This document shows, piece after piece, positions 454-11,430 of a DNA stretch of 11,430 nt. The translations under genes and the position numbers were made by a program. Each line of letters begins with the position of its first letter. Position 1 is the stretch's first letter. This DNA is from a virus, in UHGV virus genome UHGV-0107525; one strand, written 5' to 3'. The notes beneath the pieces are model-generated. The model worked only from the letters and a program-made list of their open reading frames with translations. It did not search any database and had not been told where the DNA came from.

Positions 454-1029
454 ATGTTAATGGCGAACGATAACGCATATGCAGAAGAAGATCTCATTTT
501 GAGTGACTTCATCGGTCAGCGGGAACGCTGGACACAAAAGCGAGAGGAACTTTATGCCTCGTTAGTTCGCAAAGGTGTCAACATTGAAACCGCTCAAAGC
601 GGCGATATGACGGTAGTCAGTGTTGGATTACATGGTGTGAGCGTGTCCGCAGCCAATCATGAGCCATACGTAGCGTTATCCGAGTCGATGGCAAGGCTAA
701 TTAAGTTTCTGAAGCAAACAGAAGCCAATAATGTTTTCATCGCCAAAAAGAACATCAATTTTTCTGCCGCCGTGTTCTGGATGATGAAGGGGCTTGACGC
801 CCGCCGGGCATCATGGCCTAAAGGGAGCTATATGTCGATGTTCCGTGGCAGTATTGGCAGTAAAGAAAAGCTCGTCGAATTCCTGCCGGAAGAAGCATTC
901 GATATTGTGGAAGGGTGCGATGTGATGGTTATGCCTCGCCTGGTAATGATGAATGGGGATTTACAGGCGCAGACAGACTGGTTCGCAACTGGCGTGGATA
1001 TTATCGCAACTGACTGGGAGGCATTCTGA
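454..1029 (+). CDS. Hypothetical protein with C-terminal DUF2829-like domain (Tad2-like fold candidate)
   Basis: ATG at 454 with AAGGAG 5 nt upstream. C-terminal ~90 aa carries the DUF2829 signature seen more clearly in the 8666-9343 ORF: FSAAVFWMMKGLDARRASWPKG and a terminal DIIATDWEAF block (compare FSDALMWLKEGKKVARRGWNG and DLLACDWFVVE). Stop overlaps the next start (ATGA). Domain call is by-eye motif recognition, not a profile search. Confidence 0.55.
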   Translation: MLMANDNAYAEEDLILSDFIGQRERWTQKREELYASLVRKGVNIETAQSGDMTVVSVGLHGVSVSAANHEPYVALSESMARLIKFLKQTEANNVFIAKKNINFSAAVFWMMKGLDARRASWPKGSYMSMFRGSIGSKEKLVEFLPEEAFDIVEGCDVMVMPRLVMMNGDLQAQTDWFATGVDIIATDWEAF

Positions 1030-1922: not shown

Positions 1923-3283
1923 GCCTTGTTAATTGGGAAGAGCACCGCGCCAAATTTATAGCGTTGCGTGAAGAAAAAGGGATCACCGTAAAGGAATACT
2001 GCGAGCAACACGACCTTAGCTTCAATACCGCCAGAAAGCATCTCAATATGAAAAAAAATGAGGTGCGGTCGCAGGTGAAGACTACAAAAAAAAGCACCAA
2101 ATCACCTGAAAAAAAACGGGCAGGAAGAGCAAAAAAAAGGCCAGAAGAGGGTACAGAAACAACAAAATTTACAGAAACTGACAATTCACAGAGCGGAAGT
2201 TCTTTCCGGAGCATGCCGAGAAAGAAAACTTCGGATCATAAAAATAACGACAATAATAACAATGAGATAAAAGAATCTGTCAGGAGATCATTGCGCGAAA
2301 AAATGGCGAAAATGATCCCCACCGAAGATAAATGCGCCTCAAAAATCGAGGGATCTTCAGCAATGATCCCTGGCGGTGCTGTGCAGCGTGCCACGTTGCC
2401 CACTACGAGTGTGGCTCGCGACATGATGAAGAACGGCGCAGAAGAGCACCTGCGGTTAGCAATTCAAATGGCGCAAGAACGCGCACTTCAGTACCAAAGC
2501 ATTGTTGATCAGGAGGCCGAACGCCTACAGGCGGAGATAGACGCCCTGGGTGATGAACAGCCAGAAGGAATGCACCCTGGGCAGCGACTTCTCGGTCTAA
2601 TCAGTGACGCGGCCTACTACATGAACGATTTTATCAGTAGGTTGGCAGCGATATATCAGTCCGAACAAAAGCTGCGACAGGGTGATGAAAAACTTCGTCA
2701 GGGTGCTCGCCAGCAAGCATTCAGAGAGGCCGAGGCCAGAGAAAAACTCGAATTAGCACGCCTACAGGCCGAACAGCGTGGCAAAGAGATTGAATATCGC
2801 ATTGGCGCTGACGCACGCGCAGCCAGAGTTATCGCCGCCGCTATACGTATGCGTGAGCGCGAGGAGCTGGACGATATCGGTGTTGCTGAATACATCGAGC
2901 GTCAGGGTGTCAGTGTCCCGGCTATCCTCGCGGCGCGCGCGGCGAAAGCTATCACTCTTCTCGAACCTCCAGTTTCTGACATCAATGATGTTGATGATGA
3001 ACAGCTGGACAAAGAAGCGAAGGAGTTTGCATCGCTTCAGGCTAACCATCCGCAATGGCTGGCAGAGCGCCGGGCGGATGTGGCAACCATTGTTGAAGAT
3101 CTGGGGTGCGGAGATTACGACCACAATGGCGAGCGTAAGGCTGGGGAATTCGAGGCCAACGACGAAGAGTTGGATATTGACCCTTCGGCTACGGATGAAA
3201 TTTACGGTGATTATGATGCATCAGACGCAGGATATGACGCCGGAGATGATGATATCGCGATAGAACCGCCGGAGGACGACTAA
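1919..3283 (+). CDS. pacA: Terminase small / pac-recognition subunit PacA-like
   Basis: 454-aa protein with N-terminal HTH-like region, lysine-rich linker, coiled-coil-like Ala/Arg/Glu-rich middle and strongly acidic C-terminus (DDDIAIEPPEDD). Stop overlaps the start of the large terminase gene (TAATG). Contains an internal GATC cluster, as P1 pacA contains pac. Confidence 0.8.
   Translation: MSLVNWEEHRAKFIALREEKGITVKEYCEQHDLSFNTARKHLNMKKNEVRSQVKTTKKSTKSPEKKRAGRAKKRPEEGTETTKFTETDNSQSGSSFRSMPRKKTSDHKNNDNNNNEIKESVRRSLREKMAKMIPTEDKCASKIEGSSAMIPGGAVQRATLPTTSVARDMMKNGAEEHLRLAIQMAQERALQYQSIVDQEAERLQAEIDALGDEQPEGMHPGQRLLGLISDAAYYMNDFISRLAAIYQSEQKLRQGDEKLRQGARQQAFREAEAREKLELARLQAEQRGKEIEYRIGADARAARVIAAAIRMREREELDDIGVAEYIERQGVSVPAILAARAAKAITLLEPPVSDINDVDDEQLDKEAKEFASLQANHPQWLAERRADVATIVEDLGCGDYDHNGERKAGEFEANDEELDIDPSATDEIYGDYDASDAGYDAGDDDIAIEPPEDD
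2233..2369. other. Candidate pac (packaging initiation) site: cluster of five Dam GATC hexamers inside pacA
   Basis: GATC at 2234, 2286, 2314, 2352 and 2365 within about 136 bp, in hexamers GGATCA, AGATCA, TGATCC, GGATCT, TGATCC; ATGATCCC occurs twice. P1 pac is a methylation-regulated cluster of TGATCA/G hexamers within pacA. Confidence 0.4.
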
Positions 3284-4791
3284 TGGCTGGTGGGCGCAAG
3301 ATTAAATGCGTCACCAGCGATCCACGCTGGCGCGATATGGTAATCAAATACCGCTACAACTTTACCCAGGCTGTTGTTGATATTTTCGGGATGTTTCCCT
3401 CCCACCAGCAGCAGGAGATTATCCAGTCCGTACAGCAAAAAGGGAGCAGAACCACTGTTACTTCTGGTCACGGTACAGGGAAATCGTCGTTAACAGCTAT
3501 GTTGTTGCTGATTTATTTGATTCTGTTCCCCGATGCCCGTGTCATCATTGTTGCTAACAAGATAGGCCAGGTTAAAACAGGGGTATTCAAATACGTTAAA
3601 CAGTATTGGGCGAATGCAGTTAAGCGTCACGGGTGGTTACAGACCTATTTTGTCCTGTCTGACACCATGTTTTATGAACGTTCCCGCAAAGGGATCTGGG
3701 AAGTTCTCTGCAAAGGTTATCGACTCGGTAACGAAGAAGCACTGGCGGGGGAGCACGCGGCACATTTGCTTCTAATTCTGGATGAAGCATCAGGCATATC
3801 TGATAAAGCGATCGGCGTAATGACTGGCGCTCTGACTGAAGAAGATAACCGAATGTTGATGCTATCCCAGCCAACAAGGCCAAGTGGTTATTTCTACGAT
3901 TCGCACCATTCTCAAGCTAAAACCCCAGACAACCCGAAAGGGATCTGGACAGCAATTGTTCTTAACTCAGAAGAATCACCGTTCGTCACACCACAATTCA
4001 TCAGGCAGAAACTCCTGGAATATGGCGGGCGCGATTCTATTGAGTACATGGTCAAGGTTCTTGGTCAGTTTCCTCGGGAGATTAACGGCTATTTGCTTGG
4101 TCGTGATGAATGCGATCGCGCTGCGCGGCGCAAGGTGTTGTTGGAGAAAAACTGGGGATGGGTGGCTACTGCTGACGTTGGTAACGGGCGAGACAAGTCA
4201 GTTCTTAATATCTGTAAAGTGTCTGGTCACCGGGAAAAGCGGCGTGTTGTTAACTTTAAGGTAATGGAAATGCCAGGGACTATGGACCCGCTGGCTTTTG
4301 CTGACTTTATATACAACGAATGCACACCGGATAAATACCCGAATATTACAATCGCGGTTGACGCAGACGGTTTTGGTTCAGATACCTGTGCGCAGCTGGT
4401 GCGCCGTGGGGCTAATCCGGTACGGATTCGGTGGGGGAAACCCATGTTTTCGAACAAAGACAAGGAGCGTTTTGTTAACCAGCGTGCCTACGCAAATATT
4501 ATGGCTCGTGATGCCATAAAGTCAGGTCGTATGCGAATAGACAGCGACCCTAAAACGGCAGAGCAAGCGTCAAAAATCCCCTTTTTACTTAATGAAGAAG
4601 GGAAGATGGCGATGATGCGCAAGGAGCACATGCGGCAAAAGCTGAACATCAAATCACCTGACCGATGGGATACCTACTGCTTTACAATGCTGGTGGACTA
4701 TGTTCCTGCTAATGAAGATATCGGCGCTGAAATGGCTACCTTCCGCGATCAGGTTCTTGCAGATGTGGAAATGCCAGATCTGGATATATAA
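3283..4791 (+). CDS. pacB: Terminase large subunit PacB-like (ATPase plus nuclease)
   Basis: 502 aa. Walker A-like TSGHGTGKSS, Walker B-like LLLILDEASG, and C-terminal acidic clusters typical of the RNase H-like terminase nuclease domain (VATADVGNGRD, IAVDADGFGSD). Immediately follows pacA. Confidence 0.9.
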   Translation: MAGGRKIKCVTSDPRWRDMVIKYRYNFTQAVVDIFGMFPSHQQQEIIQSVQQKGSRTTVTSGHGTGKSSLTAMLLLIYLILFPDARVIIVANKIGQVKTGVFKYVKQYWANAVKRHGWLQTYFVLSDTMFYERSRKGIWEVLCKGYRLGNEEALAGEHAAHLLLILDEASGISDKAIGVMTGALTEEDNRMLMLSQPTRPSGYFYDSHHSQAKTPDNPKGIWTAIVLNSEESPFVTPQFIRQKLLEYGGRDSIEYMVKVLGQFPREINGYLLGRDECDRAARRKVLLEKNWGWVATADVGNGRDKSVLNICKVSGHREKRRVVNFKVMEMPGTMDPLAFADFIYNECTPDKYPNITIAVDADGFGSDTCAQLVRRGANPVRIRWGKPMFSNKDKERFVNQRAYANIMARDAIKSGRMRIDSDPKTAEQASKIPFLLNEEGKMAMMRKEHMRQKLNIKSPDRWDTYCFTMLVDYVPANEDIGAEMATFRDQVLADVEMPDLDI

Positions 4792-6239: not shown

Positions 6240-7268
6240 ATGAGTAAACTTATTATCTCCGGTAATCCTGGCATGTTTCTTCGTGATATTGGTGCTGAGT
6301 ACCAGGAAGCCGCCAAAAATTTCATGCAGTTCCTTAATGACCAGGGCGCTTACTCACCTAATACACTGCGCGATCTGCGCTTGGTCTTTCACTCCTGGGC
6401 GCGTTGGTGCCACGCTCGTGGTATTGCGTGGTTTCCGATCTCCCCGGAAGCTGCCCGCGAATACCTGCTTCAACTGCATGATGCGGATCTGGCTTCAACC
6501 ACCATTGAAAAGCATTACGCCATGCTCAATATGCTGTTGTCACAATGCGGACTGCCGCAACTCTCTGATGACAAAAGCGTATCCCTGGCGATGCGGCGCA
6601 TCCGGCGCGAAGCTGCAACCGAAAAAGGCGAACGCACAGGCCAGGCTATACCGTTGCGGTGGGATGATCTGAAATGGCTCGACGTGTTGCTGTCCCGTTC
6701 CGAGCGGCTGGTGGACCTGCGCAACCGGGCGTTTCTCTTCGTGGCATACAATACCCTGTTGCGTATGGCTGAAATGTCCCGCGTGCGTGTTCGCGATCTG
6801 GAACAGACTGGTGACACTGTAACGCTTCACGTATCCCACACCAAAACCATCACGACCGCCGCCGGACTTGATAAGGTGCTCTCCCTCCGGACAACTGCGG
6901 TTCTCAATGACTGGCTGGACGAGTCCGGACTACGTGATCACCCGGATGCGATACTTTTCCCGCCAGTACACCGGAGCAACAAAGCGCGGATCACCACCAC
7001 GCCACTAACCGCGCCCGCGATGGAGAAGATTTTCAGTGACGCCTGGGCGCTGCTTGGTAAGAGTGATGCCACCCCAAATAAAGGCCGTTACCGGACGTGG
7101 ACAGGCCACAGTGCGCGTGTTGGTGCCGCCATAGATATGGCTGAAAAACAGGTGTCTTTGGTTGAAATTATGCAGGAAGGTACATGGAAGAAGCCCGAAA
7201 CACTGATGCGTTATCTTCGTCGTGGCGGTGTGACAGCAGGTGCCAATAGCCGCCTCATGGATTCATGA
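6240..7268 (+). CDS. dre: Cre-family tyrosine recombinase, Dre-like
   Basis: 342 aa. Aligns along its length to P1 Cre as recalled, with conserved blocks (FPISPE, AFLFVAYNTLLRMAE vs Cre AFLGIAYNTLLRIAE, WTGHSARVGAA vs WSGHSARVGAA) and catalytic Arg, His-x-x-Arg, Trp and Tyr (LMRYLRR) in place. GAGGTG RBS 10 nt upstream. Adjacent rox-type site supports Dre. Confidence 0.92.
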   Translation: MSKLIISGNPGMFLRDIGAEYQEAAKNFMQFLNDQGAYSPNTLRDLRLVFHSWARWCHARGIAWFPISPEAAREYLLQLHDADLASTTIEKHYAMLNMLLSQCGLPQLSDDKSVSLAMRRIRREAATEKGERTGQAIPLRWDDLKWLDVLLSRSERLVDLRNRAFLFVAYNTLLRMAEMSRVRVRDLEQTGDTVTLHVSHTKTITTAAGLDKVLSLRTTAVLNDWLDESGLRDHPDAILFPPVHRSNKARITTTPLTAPAMEKIFSDAWALLGKSDATPNKGRYRTWTGHSARVGAAIDMAEKQVSLVEIMQEGTWKKPETLMRYLRRGGVTAGANSRLMDS

Positions 7269-7271
7269 GAT

Positions 7272-7283
7272 TAAATTTCTAAC
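7272..7283. repeat. Second copy of 12-bp motif TAAATTTCTAAC, between dre and the downstream operon
   Basis: Exact 12-bp match to 6048-6059, located 4 bp after the dre stop. Confidence 0.3.
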
Positions 7284-7342
7284 ACACCTTTTTAGATTGT
7301 TATCTTTGCTGTAAAGTACCCTCTCCTATTTCGGAGGGTGCT

Positions 7343-7687
7343 TTGCAGAGTCAAATCACGGAATCAAGACGCTTTAAGGTTGATGGTTACACCGTAACCT
7401 TCGCCGCTGGTGTTAAGAACAGTCATGCTGTCGTTGTATTTGGCATCATGACCGGACTTGAGGCCGTCCCTGTGTTTACCCTCGAAAAAAACTGGCGAAA
7501 TCTGGAGGAAGCGGAAAGCTACGTCCGGAGAGTAACCATCGCTGCCGCCGAAAAACTCCTGTCCCACTATCAGGAAAATTATCGCACTATGGTCGAGAAG
7601 ATTAATCTCGCTTTCACTCGCCCCACTACAGGCTTTATCGCCCCGGAGACTAATGCAGGTCGCTATCCTGCAAGGGGGCGTCGGTGA
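7343..7687 (+). CDS. Hypothetical protein (114 aa), first gene of the accessory operon
   Basis: ORF from a TTG start with GGAGGG 4 nt upstream; stop overlaps the next gene's GTG start. The start codon is uncertain. The antisense ORF 7364-7702 is less likely given operon polarity. Confidence 0.4.
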   Translation: MQSQITESRRFKVDGYTVTFAAGVKNSHAVVVFGIMTGLEAVPVFTLEKNWRNLEEAESYVRRVTIAAAEKLLSHYQENYRTMVEKINLAFTRPTTGFIAPETNAGRYPARGRR

Positions 7688-8160
7688 AAAATTATTACCC
7701 ATCTCTGAATTGTTACCCGTCTTCGTATCCGGAATTGTCCGGGAAGCTGTTAGCTCTATTGGCTAAATCACCAACTGAATGGTTTAAGCCTGTCGTTATC
7801 AATCCGCACTTCCTGGATTACGGATCTGTTCGCACTCGTAACGAACTCAAAAACCTGCTGGCGCATGGATTCATTCGACACCGTGCCGGGAAAGGCTATC
7901 AGTTAGCGATTTCGCCAGAAGAGGCCGTGCAGCTATTCGCATATCGTGACAGCCAGACAAAAGCACGGGTAATAGCTCAAATACTTCATAACGGCAGCAC
8001 CTATGCCCGCCAGTTTGGCGGCGACACGTCGCAGTTCTTGCGGGCTGTGCGATCGCTGGAAGAACAAGGAGTTATTGAAAGTTCCTGTCTTCCTGTTCCT
8101 ACCGTTCCACATATCAAACGTCGGGTTTACACCTTCACGCAGAGAGCTAAAAAACAATGA
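7684..8160 (+). CDS. Hypothetical protein, possible winged-helix DNA-binding protein (158 aa)
   Basis: No internal Met, so the GTG at 7684 (AAGGGGG RBS about 7 nt upstream) is the likely start. Wing-like IRHRAGKGYQLAI and helix TSQFLRAVRSLEEQGVIE. Stop overlaps the dUTPase ATG (ATGA). Confidence 0.5.
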   Translation: MKNYYPSLNCYPSSYPELSGKLLALLAKSPTEWFKPVVINPHFLDYGSVRTRNELKNLLAHGFIRHRAGKGYQLAISPEEAVQLFAYRDSQTKARVIAQILHNGSTYARQFGGDTSQFLRAVRSLEEQGVIESSCLPVPTVPHIKRRVYTFTQRAKKQ

Positions 8161-8651
8161 TTTACGTAAAAGTGAAACGCCTACATCCGGCAGCAAAACT
8201 TCCAGCTTATGCCACTGCCGGATCGGCGGCGATGGATTTTGAGGCTATTGAAATAACACCGTGCGTCGATAGCAATGGTGCAATTTCCTCAAGCTGGTGG
8301 GTGCATACCGGGCTGGCTATGGAGATCCCGCCCGGCTGGTGTCTGAAACTCTATCCGCGTTCCGGATTGGGCTGCAAAAAACATACTCGCCTGGCTAACT
8401 GCGTAGGAATTATCGACTCCGATTATCGCGGTGAAATCATGGCAAAACTGATTACTGATCCCGGCGGTGAAGGCGTTTGCCTCAAGCCAGGAATGGCGGT
8501 CATGCAAGGCATTTTTGAGCGTGTTGAACAAGTCTCTCTGGTCGAAGTTGAGGAACTCAACGAAACGGAACGTGGTGCTGGTGGCTTTGGTAGCACATCA
8601 GAAGGCCGCTTTGAAATTAAGCGTTCACCGCTTCAGTACGAAAAGTTATAA
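8157..8651 (+). CDS. dut: dUTP diphosphatase (trimeric dUTPase)
   Basis: Five dUTPase motifs recognisable in order: ATAGSAAMDF (motif 1 variant), YPRSGLG, GIIDSDYRGE, MAVMQ, RGAGGFGSTS. Confidence 0.85.
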   Translation: MIYVKVKRLHPAAKLPAYATAGSAAMDFEAIEITPCVDSNGAISSSWWVHTGLAMEIPPGWCLKLYPRSGLGCKKHTRLANCVGIIDSDYRGEIMAKLITDPGGEGVCLKPGMAVMQGIFERVEQVSLVEVEELNETERGAGGFGSTSEGRFEIKRSPLQYEKL

Positions 8652-8665
8652 GCAGAGGAAAGACT

Positions 8666-9343
8666 ATGGCTAGCATAGCAACGAAAGAGCTTTTTAGGTT
8701 CATTCCCAAATACAAAGCTCACAAAATCGTTAGTGCATCGAAAATCAAAAATGTTGTTATTTTCGGAGTAACTGATACCCCACTTTGGGGCAGCATCGAA
8801 CTCGTTGAGCCAAAAGGGGCAACAGTTTGTGTTGACGCAATGTTTTTACAAAAACACCGACCAAAAACTGGCGGGTATCTGATCGTTTATGAAAACGGTT
8901 ATCTGTTCTATGCCCAGGAGAAACCATTTGAGGAATGCTATGCCCTGGTTAACGACGCCTCCGAAAATGGAACCACGGTCATCATTACGGATGACAACGG
9001 CGTGATGACTAATCTTACCGGGAGCGTAACTATTTCTGCTGGTGGCATCACTACTCAGCAAGAAGAAATCGACCTTGAAGCAGCCGACTTTTCTGACGCG
9101 CTGATGTGGCTGAAGGAAGGAAAGAAAGTTGCTCGACGCGGGTGGAACGGCGAAAACCAATTCTGCTGGCTGGTTCCTGAAGGACAGTACCCAGCACGAA
9201 TGGAAGCCATTAAGGGATATTTCCCCGGCGACCTCGTTCCGTATGGTGCTTATTTCGCCTTAAAAAATGCACAAGGTGTAGTTGTTCCGTGGGTGCCTTC
9301 GGTAGGCGACTTACTGGCGTGTGACTGGTTTGTAGTGGAGTGA
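8666..9343 (+). CDS. DUF2829-domain fusion protein (Tad2-like C-terminal domain, unknown N-terminal domain)
   Basis: C-terminal about 85 aa FSDALMWLKEGKKVARRGWNGENQFCWLVPEG...VVVPWVPSVGDLLACDWFVVE matches the DUF2829 signature (F-x-x-A-L-x-x-L-K-x-G-K-K-V-x-R-x-G-W-N-G ... D-L-L-A-x-D-W). GAGGAAAG RBS before the ATG at 8666. Confidence 0.75.
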   Translation: MASIATKELFRFIPKYKAHKIVSASKIKNVVIFGVTDTPLWGSIELVEPKGATVCVDAMFLQKHRPKTGGYLIVYENGYLFYAQEKPFEECYALVNDASENGTTVIITDDNGVMTNLTGSVTISAGGITTQQEEIDLEAADFSDALMWLKEGKKVARRGWNGENQFCWLVPEGQYPARMEAIKGYFPGDLVPYGAYFALKNAQGVVVPWVPSVGDLLACDWFVVE

Positions 9344-9349
9344 TTTGAC

Positions 9350-10117
9350 ATGGAAAGCACCAAAACAATTCAATACCGCTTGCGTAATGGCCTGCTGGTG
9401 GCTGTTAACGCTGATATGTCACTGCCGTTTGACACGATAGAACGCACTATCATGACGTATCTCGGCTTTAATGAAGAGCTGAATGAAGAGCATGGCGTAG
9501 CTATATGGAGTGATGCAGACAGCGGCGTTCGTCGTTACATCACTGCCAGAGGCAAAGACTACTCTCTGGAAGAACTGTTTACCCTTGCGCAGTCTTTCGA
9601 ATGTGTAGCATTGGACCTGTTTAATGATCCTGCTATAGCGCAACGACTTATCCGCGATCTTGGACTGTCGGTTACCCCAATTATCTTTAAAAATGGCAGC
9701 CTGACTGGCACATGGCGCGTAGAACGCATCTCAAACTACCTTCCATATAACCGACAGTTAAATGGAGTAATCTCCGGCGTTAATCAGCCCGTAGCGTGTG
9801 AAAATGTAAACCTGGTTGTCGCTGTTTTGGCAACCGCATGTCGTGTTATCGGTTTGGCTAAACAGGCATTTATTCATTTCCCAAATGGTGCAGAAGGTAG
9901 CGCAGAGATTATCGCGTGTGATTTCGAATTTACCTGGATGCTACGCGAATATCTGGACCAAACAGTATTCCGTGCCGAAGAACTGGATATGTATATCACG
10001 TCAACGATTCCAGACGATGTGCGAGCTGAAGCAATCGCTACAGCCAGGGCGAAATGCCGTGCGGCGATTGCAGAACAGGCCAAAGAAGAAGTTAAGGAAG
10101 TGGCAGATGGCGACTAA
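9350..10117 (+). CDS. Hypothetical protein (255 aa) with acidic C-terminus, translationally coupled to the terminase-like pseudo-ATPase
   Basis: ATG at 9350; acidic tail AEQAKEEVKEVADGD; stop at 10115-10117 overlaps the downstream start at 10107 by 11 nt. No recognisable catalytic motifs. Confidence 0.6.
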   Translation: MESTKTIQYRLRNGLLVAVNADMSLPFDTIERTIMTYLGFNEELNEEHGVAIWSDADSGVRRYITARGKDYSLEELFTLAQSFECVALDLFNDPAIAQRLIRDLGLSVTPIIFKNGSLTGTWRVERISNYLPYNRQLNGVISGVNQPVACENVNLVVAVLATACRVIGLAKQAFIHFPNGAEGSAEIIACDFEFTWMLREYLDQTVFRAEELDMYITSTIPDDVRAEAIATARAKCRAAIAEQAKEEVKEVADGD

Positions 10118-11201
10118 GAGCAATATTTATAAAGATCCGCGCTGGCTGTCGCTGGTGGAGAAATATAAAGACAATTGGGTACTGGCAGCAAAAGAATTGT
10201 TTGATATTGATTTAAGCCACCAGCAACAACAAATTGTTGAAGCTATACAGCCCAACAATGCAAAAGCTACTGTCACCACTCCGTATGGGATCGGACGACC
10301 GCAAGTGCTTGCTGTTATTAGTACCCTTTATACGATTATGTATCCTGATTCCCGGACAGTAATTGTTTATCCAAAATCAAATGTTTGCAAAAGAGGAATT
10401 GTTGCATATGTGTGGCAATGTTGGGAGGCATTGCTGAAAAAACAACCTTTTATCATTGAGTATTTTAAGGTCGGTGATAGCGGTCTGATGTTCAATGAAT
10501 TTTGGGGAATGTGCTTTTGTAACTACCGCCTTAACTATGAAGATAGCATTGCAGGTCACTACGCCGACCATCTTTTATTCATTATTGTGGATTCCGTACA
10601 TATCAGCGATCGGGCATACAGCATTGTGTGGGCAAGCATGACTAGTGGTGATTCACGCATATTGCTCACTTCAATTCCGTCACCAGAGGAAATAGGCTTT
10701 TTTTATGATTCACATCATGGACGTGCTTTAGCTGAAGATAATCCGAGTGGTGTATATAAAGCCATTAAGCTGAGTGCGGAGGATTCACCATTTATTACCC
10801 AAGAATATCTTGATCATTTTGCCGAAAGGTATGGCGGGCGAAATAGTGATGACTATCGTCGTATGATTCTTGGTGAGTTCCCTGGTATTAGGGAGGCTGT
10901 TCTTGAATCAGATATGCCGAAGACAATGCGCTTTTCGATGCCTGATGGTAGTGAATGGACAATGCCATTACGAGTGATAGCCCGGCATCATGCGCAGCAC
11001 CACGCCAAAAAACATGGCGTCACGACATTAGAATGGTTGAAATCGCACACTATTCCACTCTTCACTGCAGATCACAATGCTATCGTTGAGTGGGCAAAAA
11101 CAATTCCGTGGGAGCATGTCGCTGAATATGCTCACATGCTGAAGCCTCCGAAAGACAGACACGAAATTAGCTGGCTGACAGCAGAAAAAATCATTGAGTG
11201 A
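10107..11201 (+). CDS. PacB (terminase large subunit) ATPase-domain paralogue with degenerate Walker motifs and no nuclease domain (predicted pseudo-ATPase)
   Basis: Start at ATG 10107 (AAGGAAG RBS 6 nt upstream) rather than the track's upstream 9816. The first ~250 aa align without gaps to PacB 3283-4791 (blocks DPRW, SHQQQ, TVT, PD-R-IV, HLL-I, G[YF]FYDSHH, DNPxG, ESPFxT, YGGR, LG[QE]FP). Walker A GHGTGKSS is replaced by PYGIGRPQ and Walker B ILDE by IIVD. The C-terminal ~110 aa are unrelated to the PacB nuclease domain and His-rich (RHHAQHHAKKHG). Confidence 0.8.
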   Translation: MATKSNIYKDPRWLSLVEKYKDNWVLAAKELFDIDLSHQQQQIVEAIQPNNAKATVTTPYGIGRPQVLAVISTLYTIMYPDSRTVIVYPKSNVCKRGIVAYVWQCWEALLKKQPFIIEYFKVGDSGLMFNEFWGMCFCNYRLNYEDSIAGHYADHLLFIIVDSVHISDRAYSIVWASMTSGDSRILLTSIPSPEEIGFFYDSHHGRALAEDNPSGVYKAIKLSAEDSPFITQEYLDHFAERYGGRNSDDYRRMILGEFPGIREAVLESDMPKTMRFSMPDGSEWTMPLRVIARHHAQHHAKKHGVTTLEWLKSHTIPLFTADHNAIVEWAKTIPWEHVAEYAHMLKPPKDRHEISWLTAEKIIE

Positions 11202-11207
11202 TAGTAG

Positions 11208-11238
11208 GAAGCCCGCCTGGTTGAGCGGGCTTCTTTTC
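11208..11238. terminator. Intrinsic terminator hairpin between convergent genes
   Basis: GAAGCCCGC-ctggttga-GCGGGCTTC: 9-bp perfect stem followed by TTTTC on the + strand; sits between the pseudo-terminase stop (11201) and the doc stop (11237-11239). Confidence 0.65.
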
Positions 11239-11430
11239 AAATATTGGAACCATATAGTTCACGTAGTTTTTCCGCTACTGAAGATACGGGGATTTCACCA
11301 GTTGCAGCCCCCACCGCAAGTTCCACCAGCACGGGAGAATCATATACCTGTATACCGTTACGGCGTAGAAATAGCAGCGCACTGTTTAGCGCGGTACGCT
11401 TATTGGCATCATTGAATATATGCCCTCTCG
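11237..11430 (-). CDS. doc: Doc toxin (Fic-family kinase of the phd-doc addiction module), 3' portion; N-terminus lies beyond the window edge
   Basis: Reverse-strand translation from the window edge gives RGHIFNDANKRTALNSALLFLRRNGIQVYDSPVLVELAVGAATGEIPVSSVAEKLRELYGSNI, containing the Fic/Doc motif HxFxDANKR and closely matching the C-terminus of P1 Doc as recalled. Not in the ORF track because the start is off-window. Confidence 0.9.
   Translation of the reverse strand, partial: RGHIFNDANKRTALNSALLFLRRNGIQVYDSPVLVELAVGAATGEIPVSSVAEKLRELYGSNI

Follow-up and report, generated by a model that had tools for sequence, protein, structure and literature searches.

It is well established that phages use Tad2 sponges to silence Thoeris immunity, and members of the family inhibit cyclic-oligonucleotide-based antiphage signalling systems (CBASS), pyrimidine cyclase systems for antiphage resistance (Pycsar), and Thoeris types I, II, and IV. 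Here we analyse a Tad2-containing protein encoded in an 11,430-nucleotide stretch of viral DNA, UHGV virus genome UHGV-0107525 (hereafter the window), which is a D6-like member of the P1 phage-plasmid family and is 95.8% identical to Escherichia phage D6 at positions 7300-10200. The 225-aa protein (8666..9343 including the stop codon, + strand) was taken from the list of open reading frames (ORFs) and matched PHROG 872 over its full length (E = 3.3e-55). It consists of an oligonucleotide/oligosaccharide-binding (OB)-like domain, a linker, and a C-terminal Tad2 domain, and we consider it, with moderate confidence, to be a two-module anti-signalling protein of D6/P1-like phage-plasmids.

The closest described systems are of three kinds. 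Among stand-alone Tad2 proteins, homotetramers have been reported for SPO1 Tad2, HgmTad2, and ModTad2, none of which needs a helper domain. In HgmTad2, residues W21/N22/G23, W87, S90, and D93 hold glycocyclic ADP-ribose (gcADPR), and cyclic di-GMP (c-di-GMP) is bound with pM affinity (10.1101/2023.11.15.567273). ModTad2 sequesters histidine-ADP-ribose (His-ADPR) and binds cyclic UMP or CMP (cUMP/cCMP) in a second pocket, which is formed by the beta2-beta3 region in both ModTad2 and HgmTad2 (HgmTad2: 10.1101/2023.11.15.567273). The IMG/VR homologue Tad2_68 was reported to block Thoeris types I and II and was negative against CBASS and Pycsar. Secondly, fused double sponges are established in phages, namely Acb4-Tad2 of phage Pm86, Tad2-Sequestin, and Acb4-Sequestin of phage Ab09. 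Thirdly, RyR Tad, which is gp68 of Pectobacterium phage vB_PatP_CB1, is a gcADPR sponge with its activity in a C-terminal RyR-like domain, and in the crystal its N-terminal domain is a strand-swapped dimer that exchanges beta1 (10.64898/2026.06.04.730250).

The C-terminal part of the window protein (aa 138-225; 9077..9340, + strand) is a Tad2-family domain of the ModTad2 / Tad2_68 branch, as supported by Pfam, phmmer, Foldseek, and alignment to Tad2_68. The original prediction, made from the sequence alone, had read a DUF2829 signature here, and the profile search returned a strong match to PF11195 (Tad2-like, formerly DUF2829) at aa 141-224, with an E-value of 1.3e-22 and a score of 80.5 bits, where the curated cut-off is 25. 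The match spans profile positions 2-73 of 73. The nearest solved sequences in phmmer were those of the Myroides prophage ModTad2 (9eib and 8v3e; E ~2e-20, one 1-residue gap), followed by HgmTad2/AcrIIA7, SPO1 Tad2, and SptTad2. An AlphaFold2 monomer model of the full protein, built from 32 homologues, shows a helix at aa 142-150 followed by strands. When this model was searched against the Protein Data Bank (PDB) with Foldseek, 24 Tad2 chains were found at E <= 1e-3 with target TM-scores of 0.73-0.87, the best being ModTad2 with His-ADPR (9eib; E = 8e-9), to which the domain shows 47% identity in the structural alignment. Its alignment to Tad2_68 is gapless with 65% identity.

The canonical signal-pocket residues are conserved as well. 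This comparison was based on the HgmTad2 residue list (gcADPR). The W160-N161-G162 loop (9143..9151, + strand) aligns with HgmTad2 W21/N22/G23, which bind the gcADPR diphosphate, and the stretch W209-V-P-S212-V-G-D215 (9290..9310, + strand) aligns with HgmTad2 W87, L88, S90, T92, and D93, which contact the ribose hydroxyls and adenine. W160, N161, G162, W209, S212, and D215 are all identical to their HgmTad2 counterparts. At the five variable pocket positions (the equivalents of HgmTad2 M76, A78, V84, L88, and T92), the domain agrees with Tad2_68 in four and differs at the L88 equivalent. We therefore regard sponge activity of the Tad2 half as highly probable. Membership in the ModTad2 / Tad2_68 branch points to His-ADPR and 3' cyclic ADP-ribose (3'cADPR), of Thoeris II and I respectively, as the expected targets, and by this analogy ADP-ribose-derived signals of Thoeris I and II are most likely. 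The earlier proposal of a Tad2-like gcADPR sponge thus holds for the family, with a ligand range that is expected to differ from gcADPR alone.

The remaining N-terminal part had been described as a single ~130-aa domain of unknown function. No Pfam or NCBIfam model covers it, and only sub-threshold Pfam matches (P68HR, Tudor) were found; it is, however, not one domain. It comprises an ~88-aa OB-type beta-barrel (aa ~10-97; 8693..8956, + strand) carrying the motifs PxYK(C/A)HKxVxAxKI and KHxPxxGGYxVxYE(D/N)GY...FEExY, and a variable beta-rich linker of ~40 aa (aa 98-137; 8957..9076, + strand). The predicted local distance difference test (pLDDT) score of the barrel ranged over 85-93 within the full model and was 90.9 for the barrel modelled alone. 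The linker was modelled as four short strands with pLDDT 51-57; it occurs as two alleles in P1-like plasmids, and is missing or different in more distant family members.

A protein search with the N-terminal domain alone first recovered only 11 close relatives. Profile methods showed a very large family. An exhaustive HMMER search with the barrel retrieved 1,463 clusters (50% identity) at E <= 1e-3, and a profile search retrieved 3,332 clusters (90% identity) at E <= 1e-5. Among the best 120 of these 3,332 clusters, nearly all members stood alone and were 83-110 aa long, and the few source names read 'hypothetical protein'. In the best 146 proteins, 149 stretches were matched, and in 65 of these the barrel stood alone. 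Stand-alone members are surrounded by small early genes, with genes for DnaB, a methylase, or RNA ligase nearby. The barrel is covered by PHROGs 872, 11049 (E = 2.8e-24), and 9467, none with an assigned function, and the family hidden Markov model (HMM) matched the window protein at aa 10-99 (hmmsearch, E = 6e-32). The family signature is PxYKCHKxVxAxKI ... KHxPxxGGYxVxYEDGYxSxSPAxAFEEGY, and its near-invariant positions include the polar or aromatic residues H19, K20, K26, D77, Y79, S81, and S83.

Two relationships help to place this barrel. Among solved structures, its best structural and sequence match was the phage L decoration protein Dec (PDB 6e3c), and the family profile had no other significant match in the PDB copy searched; the barrel is a distant relative of the Dec OB fold. 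In addition, the family profile aligned with gp68 at an hhalign probability of 96.7% (E = 3.6e-10), with YQSHKxVxA and GYLVVY...SWSP..VFD.G as common motifs. On this profile comparison, the window barrel and the RyR Tad N-terminal domain belong to the same family. The gp68 N-terminal domain is still described as a fold of unknown function in a June 2026 preprint in which Tad3 is annotated (10.64898/2026.06.04.730250).

Several known families were considered as identities for the N-terminal domain and rejected. Lockin was set aside since hhalign of the family profile against LockinA gave a probability of 0.9%, TadIV-1 (T4 vs.3) since it is helical and confined to Straboviridae, and Acb5 since the family motifs are all missing from Table S5, the presumed list of Acb5 homologues. 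The barrel may also be distinct from Tad3-Tad8, which bind ThsB/ThsA directly; here the separation comes from the preprint wording and the PDB search.

Two side observations concern the barrel itself. Natural tandem duplications of the barrel within one polypeptide were seen in P0131, P0135, P0146, P0257, and at locus L052 (2527-3135), which would fit a domain working as a dimer. Furthermore, many Sequestins of Pseudomonas, Stenotrophomonas, and Aeromonas prophages (Table S1 of 10.1101/2025.07.12.664507) carry a short N-terminal extension, GYxVxYEDGYxSWSPKDVFExAY, that covers only the C-terminal half of the signature, pointing to a shortened or minimal form of the barrel.

The barrel is repeatedly associated with sponges. 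In the 94 multidomain barrel proteins, the commonest Pfam partners were Tad2 (5), Sequestin PF21825 (4), Acb4 PF13876 (3), and the Acb2/Tad1 hairpin (2), with one fusion each to RyR, AlpA, and DUF551. The partners were otherwise diverse, 78 of 92 extra segments being singletons. The supplementary tables of Tal et al. (10.1101/2025.07.12.664507) contain one IMG/VR protein with a barrel, an Acb4-like middle part, and Lockin, and another with a barrel and Sequestin, while none of the 124 candidates tested in that study carries the barrel motifs searched for. The barrel is thus fused across six sponge families, namely Tad2, Sequestin, Acb4, Acb2/Tad1 hairpin, Lockin, and RyR. Close relatives of the window protein with an additional C-terminal Sequestin domain also exist (P0081, P0097, P0098, and P0100).

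Gene neighbourhoods point in the same direction. In 80 IMG/VR barrel loci, 53 of the 81 barrel genes were stand-alone (<=120 aa). A known sponge was fused to the barrel or located within 3 kb in 14/80 barrel loci and in 0/80 control loci, which were anchored on thymidylate synthase and had similar total length (Fisher p = 6.6e-5). When only separate sponge genes were counted, the numbers were 10/80 and 0/80 (p = 0.0014). The fusions at these loci were to Tad2 and Acb4, and the neighbouring genes encoded Acb2, Acb4, Tad1, and Tad2-Sequestin. For example, at L041 a Tad2-Sequestin fusion gene (465-953) lies directly 5' of a barrel-Acb4 fusion gene (980-1711), and at L058 and L062 a barrel-Tad2 fusion gene (2962-3507) overlaps the start of an Acb2 gene (3480-3749). 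The earlier suggestion that the N-terminal part adds a second ligand pocket or another function has thereby gained circumstantial support, from an autonomous phage module found fused or adjacent to sponges of six families, and falls short of proof.

Homologues of the window gene, annotated as 'DUF2829 domain-containing protein', were found in 235 PLSDB plasmid records from Escherichia, Salmonella, and Shigella, nearly all of which are ~90-100 kb and non-mobilisable. Nine alleles form a mosaic in which at least three barrel, two linker, and three Tad2 alleles occur in varied combinations. What separates the Tad2 alleles is the beta2-beta3 insertion, which is ModTad2-like in one and long in another. 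The third Tad2 allele (L005 56-706 and L009 56-706) has a very short insertion, a change from WNG to WKG, and further pocket changes; it pairs with two different barrel alleles and may have altered ligand specificity. Ratios of nonsynonymous to synonymous substitution (dN/dS), calculated by the Nei-Gojobori method, were 0.41-0.53 for the barrel (divergent pairs), ~0.5-0.68 for the linker, and 0.05-0.30 for the Tad2 part. The barrel values indicate purifying selection, weaker than on the sponge half, and being well below ~1 they also led us to reject a decaying or pseudogene N-terminal domain. The barrel has also been lost in places. An in-frame 237-bp segment encoding aa ~21-99 (8726..8962, + strand) is deleted in D6 orf114 and some plasmids, as seen in the DNA alignment of the window, D6, and SJ46 and in the D6 translation, with a junction that is ambiguous within AAAA(T) microhomology. 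The plasmid homologues H85-H87 covered 64% of the query in two pieces, and in RCS47 the gene is cut by IS26.

These observations can be combined into a model for the two-module anti-signalling protein. By analogy with solved Tad2 proteins, the Tad2 domains would assemble as a homotetramer whose inter-protomer pockets would bind and sequester ADP-ribose signals made by Toll/interleukin-1 receptor (TIR) proteins (His-ADPR and/or 3'cADPR), so that the Thoeris effector would never be activated and the phage-plasmid would be protected. The barrel, joined through the variable ~40-aa beta-rich linker, may be a second, separable anti-defence module that probably dimerises by strand swapping like its RyR Tad homologue and probably binds a further ligand or host target, which we prefer to a mere scaffold. 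The confidence differs among these parts: domain identity, fold, pocket conservation, association with sponges, selection on the two modules, and exchange and loss of the barrel come from the data, and the oligomeric states, the ligands, and any activity of the barrel are inferred. A second binding function for the barrel seems to us a real prospect but stands somewhat short of even. A more specific version, in which the barrel is a further unrecognised phage anti-signalling family (sponge or direct inhibitor) with a ligand or target unlike those tested so far, and the window protein a dual inhibitor whose halves are shuffled independently among P1-like plasmids, is more tentative.

Several points weigh against an active barrel. 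Expressed alone, aa 1-86 of gp68 had no effect on type I Thoeris, for which the C-terminal RyR part sufficed (10.64898/2026.06.04.730250). D6 and several plasmids have lost the barrel in frame and kept the Tad2 part, so the barrel is dispensable for whatever maintains the gene there. The dN/dS of the barrel lies above that of the Tad2 part, and near-invariant family residues are altered in this lineage (D77N, S81F, S83A, P84Q, and G91C). It should be noted that the sponge-neighbourhood control used one anchor gene, that near-duplicates occur in both locus sets, and that sponges were detected from seed sequences. In addition, fusing a domain that dimerises to one that tetramerises could lead to clashes or lattices.

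The rival that survives best is a plain Tad2 sponge in which the barrel is a structural accessory, serving dimerisation, solubility, or avidity, with no ligand or target of its own. Four of the observations above fit it well: the RyR Tad N-terminal domain aids dimerisation via its swapped beta1 strand and is inactive alone against Thoeris I, the barrel-less D6 allele is maintained, evolution is faster in the barrel than in the Tad2 part, and the many singleton fusion partners are as expected of a generic helper domain. However, the commonest form of the family is the stand-alone ~90-aa protein, and there is no obvious reason for a lone scaffold. Separate sponge genes also occur beside stand-alone barrel genes more often than at control loci, and the near-invariant polar and aromatic residues, judged from sequence, are of a kind that often marks a binding site. 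Furthermore, solved Tad2 proteins tetramerise without such help. On balance, we regard a purely structural barrel as rather unlikely.

A second rival concerns the Tad2 domain, which might serve a purpose other than Thoeris inhibition, acting on Pycsar or CBASS nucleotides, on c-di-GMP or another housekeeping nucleotide relevant to the plasmid-prophage lifestyle, or as an AcrIIA7-like anti-CRISPR. The functional plasticity of the family across CBASS, Pycsar, and Thoeris I, II, and IV speaks for it, as do the binding of cUMP/cCMP in the second pocket of ModTad2 and of c-di-GMP by HgmTad2. Moreover, 19 of 84 tested sponge homologues (Acb2, Tad1, and Tad2 pooled) inhibited none of seven systems, and the three plasmid Tad2 alleles differ exactly in the beta2-beta3 insertion of the second pocket, one of them also changing WNG to WKG. 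Set against this, the canonical pocket for ADP-ribose-derived signals is intact in the window protein, the closest tested homologue (Tad2_68) inhibited Thoeris I and II and not CBASS or Pycsar, and the anti-CRISPR activity of the DUF2829 protein AcrIIA7 was not reproducible (10.1101/2023.11.15.567273), which makes this rival improbable.

The weakest rival, a Dec-like capsid decoration protein with the OB domain on the capsid, the linker as trimeric stalk, and DUF2829 at the tip, draws on the Dec match, on a weak phmmer alignment of the linker to the start of the Dec stalk (reaching query aa 126 / Dec ~95-122, E = 0.02), and on a family member annotated 'capsid decoration protein', but is very improbable and was rejected because the Dec capsid contacts (K30, Y31, Y49, Y71, and E73; PMC6449081) fall on variable columns or on other conserved residues (D77, Y79) in the family profile alignment and the gene contexts, an accessory string here (with the cre-like gene, and phd/doc in D6 and plasmids) and small early genes for stand-alone members, are not head modules, while IS26 splits the gene in RCS47 and the OB domain is lacking in D6, both isolated phages, a Tad2 tetramer would be mismatched with a trimeric stalk, and a sponge outside the capsid would have no access to cytoplasmic signals. 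The annotated member is a 164-aa barrel protein of Pseudomonas phage Jeremy (L011 2995-3489), located among small hypothetical genes beside a DNA methylase gene, and its name was probably transferred from the distant similarity to Dec.

Besides the gene for the two-module protein, the window includes lpa, pacA/pacB, and a gene for a Cre-like recombinase. The gene for the two-module protein lies in an accessory string between the cre-like gene and, in related D6 and plasmid loci, phd/doc. The original prediction had placed it inside an accessory operon. It is indeed the fourth of five co-directional genes, after two encoding unknown proteins (7343..7687 and 7684..8160) and a dUTPase (8157..8651, + strand; PF00692, E = 4.4e-14; annotated dut in D6 and plasmids), and before an IsaA-like protein with no assigned function (9350..10117, + strand; PHROG 2326, E = 2.2e-133). 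The genes are separated by 6-15 nt gaps or share 4-nt overlaps, consistent with a single operon. A Shine-Dalgarno-like AGAGGA (8654..8659, + strand) read from the sequence lies 6 nt 5' of the ATG, and annotated plasmid homologues use the same start. A simple sigma-70 scan of 7200..11430 on both strands gave 0 promoter-like sites, against 6.5 ± 2.9 expected in shuffles, and a simple scan of the gene string found no convincing internal terminator. A weak hairpin with a T-run (7254-7269) was seen where the cre-like gene ends.

The IsaA-like gene, which has no Pfam match, always lies 6-7 nt 3' of the OB-Tad2 gene (e.g., L001 3041-3817 and L002 4685-5467), and the same pair is found in D6, SJ46, and plasmids. 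The pair occupies two genome sites, after ssb in SJ46 and RCS47 or after dut in D6-like elements, which suggests a mobile two-gene cassette. As for the dUTPase, an in-frame dUTPase-Tad2 fusion without the barrel (P0056; 241 aa, 15 member sequences) occurs in some E. coli elements, and in Bacillus phage Shanette (hit H16) a DUF2829 match lies under a feature annotated as dUTP pyrophosphatase. A recurrent dUTPase-DUF2829 linkage may exist.

Two further genes of the window deserve mention. A second DUF2829 protein (454..1029, + strand; 191 aa) matches PF11195 at aa 102-190 (E = 2.9e-9) and PHROG 7362. It has its own unrelated N-terminal part of ~100 aa and a divergent pocket (WNG to WP-, S90 to T), and among INPHARED phages it was found only in D6. 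The barrel was not found in it, the sole match of the family HMM among the window ORFs being 8666..9343. Directly 3' of the IsaA-like gene, 10110..11201 (+ strand; inside the mechanical ORF 9816..11201) encodes a 363-aa paralogue of the ATPase domain of PacB, the terminase large subunit (window 3283..4791), with 37% identity over 258 aa (E = 1e-61). Its Walker A motif is changed from GHGTGKS to PYGIGRP and its Walker B motif from LLILDEASG to LFIIVDSVH. It lacks both a nuclease domain and any Pfam match, and is missing at this site in D6. One possibility is a terminase decoy without catalytic activity, e.g., against terminase-sensing defences.

A Tad2 sponge is a useful but expected finding for a P1/D6-like phage-plasmid from E. 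coli and Salmonella, and both the Tad2 half and double-sponge fusions are already known. The added value lies in the partner domain, a very common unannotated phage module of ~90 aa with thousands of clusters. In the literature searched, it is mentioned only in passing, as an unknown fold (10.64898/2026.06.04.730250), and we found no description there of its relation to the Dec OB fold, its family size, its recurrent fusion to six sponge families with the accompanying neighbourhood statistics, or the barrel-Tad2 architecture with modular alleles. Sponge families have repeatedly been used to discover immune signals, His-ADPR having been identified with ModTad2. If the barrel binds something, it could expose an immune signal or target not yet known. 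If it is a new anti-signalling family, it would be recognisable, as Sequestin was, by its fusion to known sponges, and its stand-alone members could serve as bait for a new immune signal. The natural allele series offers ready-made constructs for this purpose, comprising the full-length protein, the barrel-deleted D6 form, and three Tad2 alleles with different second-pocket insertions. Even a barrel that is only a dimerising scaffold would explain a recurrent architecture of phage counter-defence proteins.

Compared with known systems, the window protein combines features of each. From Dec it is set apart by the family K(C)HK motif, which is missing from Dec, and by its accessory rather than structural gene context. 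Its aa 138-225 resemble ModTad2 and Tad2_68 (PDB 8v3e, 9eib) in fold, beta2-beta3 insertion length, WNG loop, and W..S..D motif. However, those proteins stand alone at ~87-89 aa, whereas the Tad2 domain here follows a barrel and a linker. Like the double sponges, it unites Tad2 and a second small module from phage anti-signalling loci in a single polypeptide; both halves of the double sponges are proven sponges, whereas the partner domain here is a sponge-associated candidate only. RyR Tad is similar in placing a domain of the same N-terminal family ahead of a signal-sequestering C-terminal domain. Its C-terminal sponge is, however, all-helical and RyR Repeat12-like instead of Tad2, and its N-terminal domain is shorter (~70 aa) and lacks the extra central hairpin of the longer window barrel. 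RyR Tad also differs in being a dimer and not a tetramer like the Tad2 proteins.

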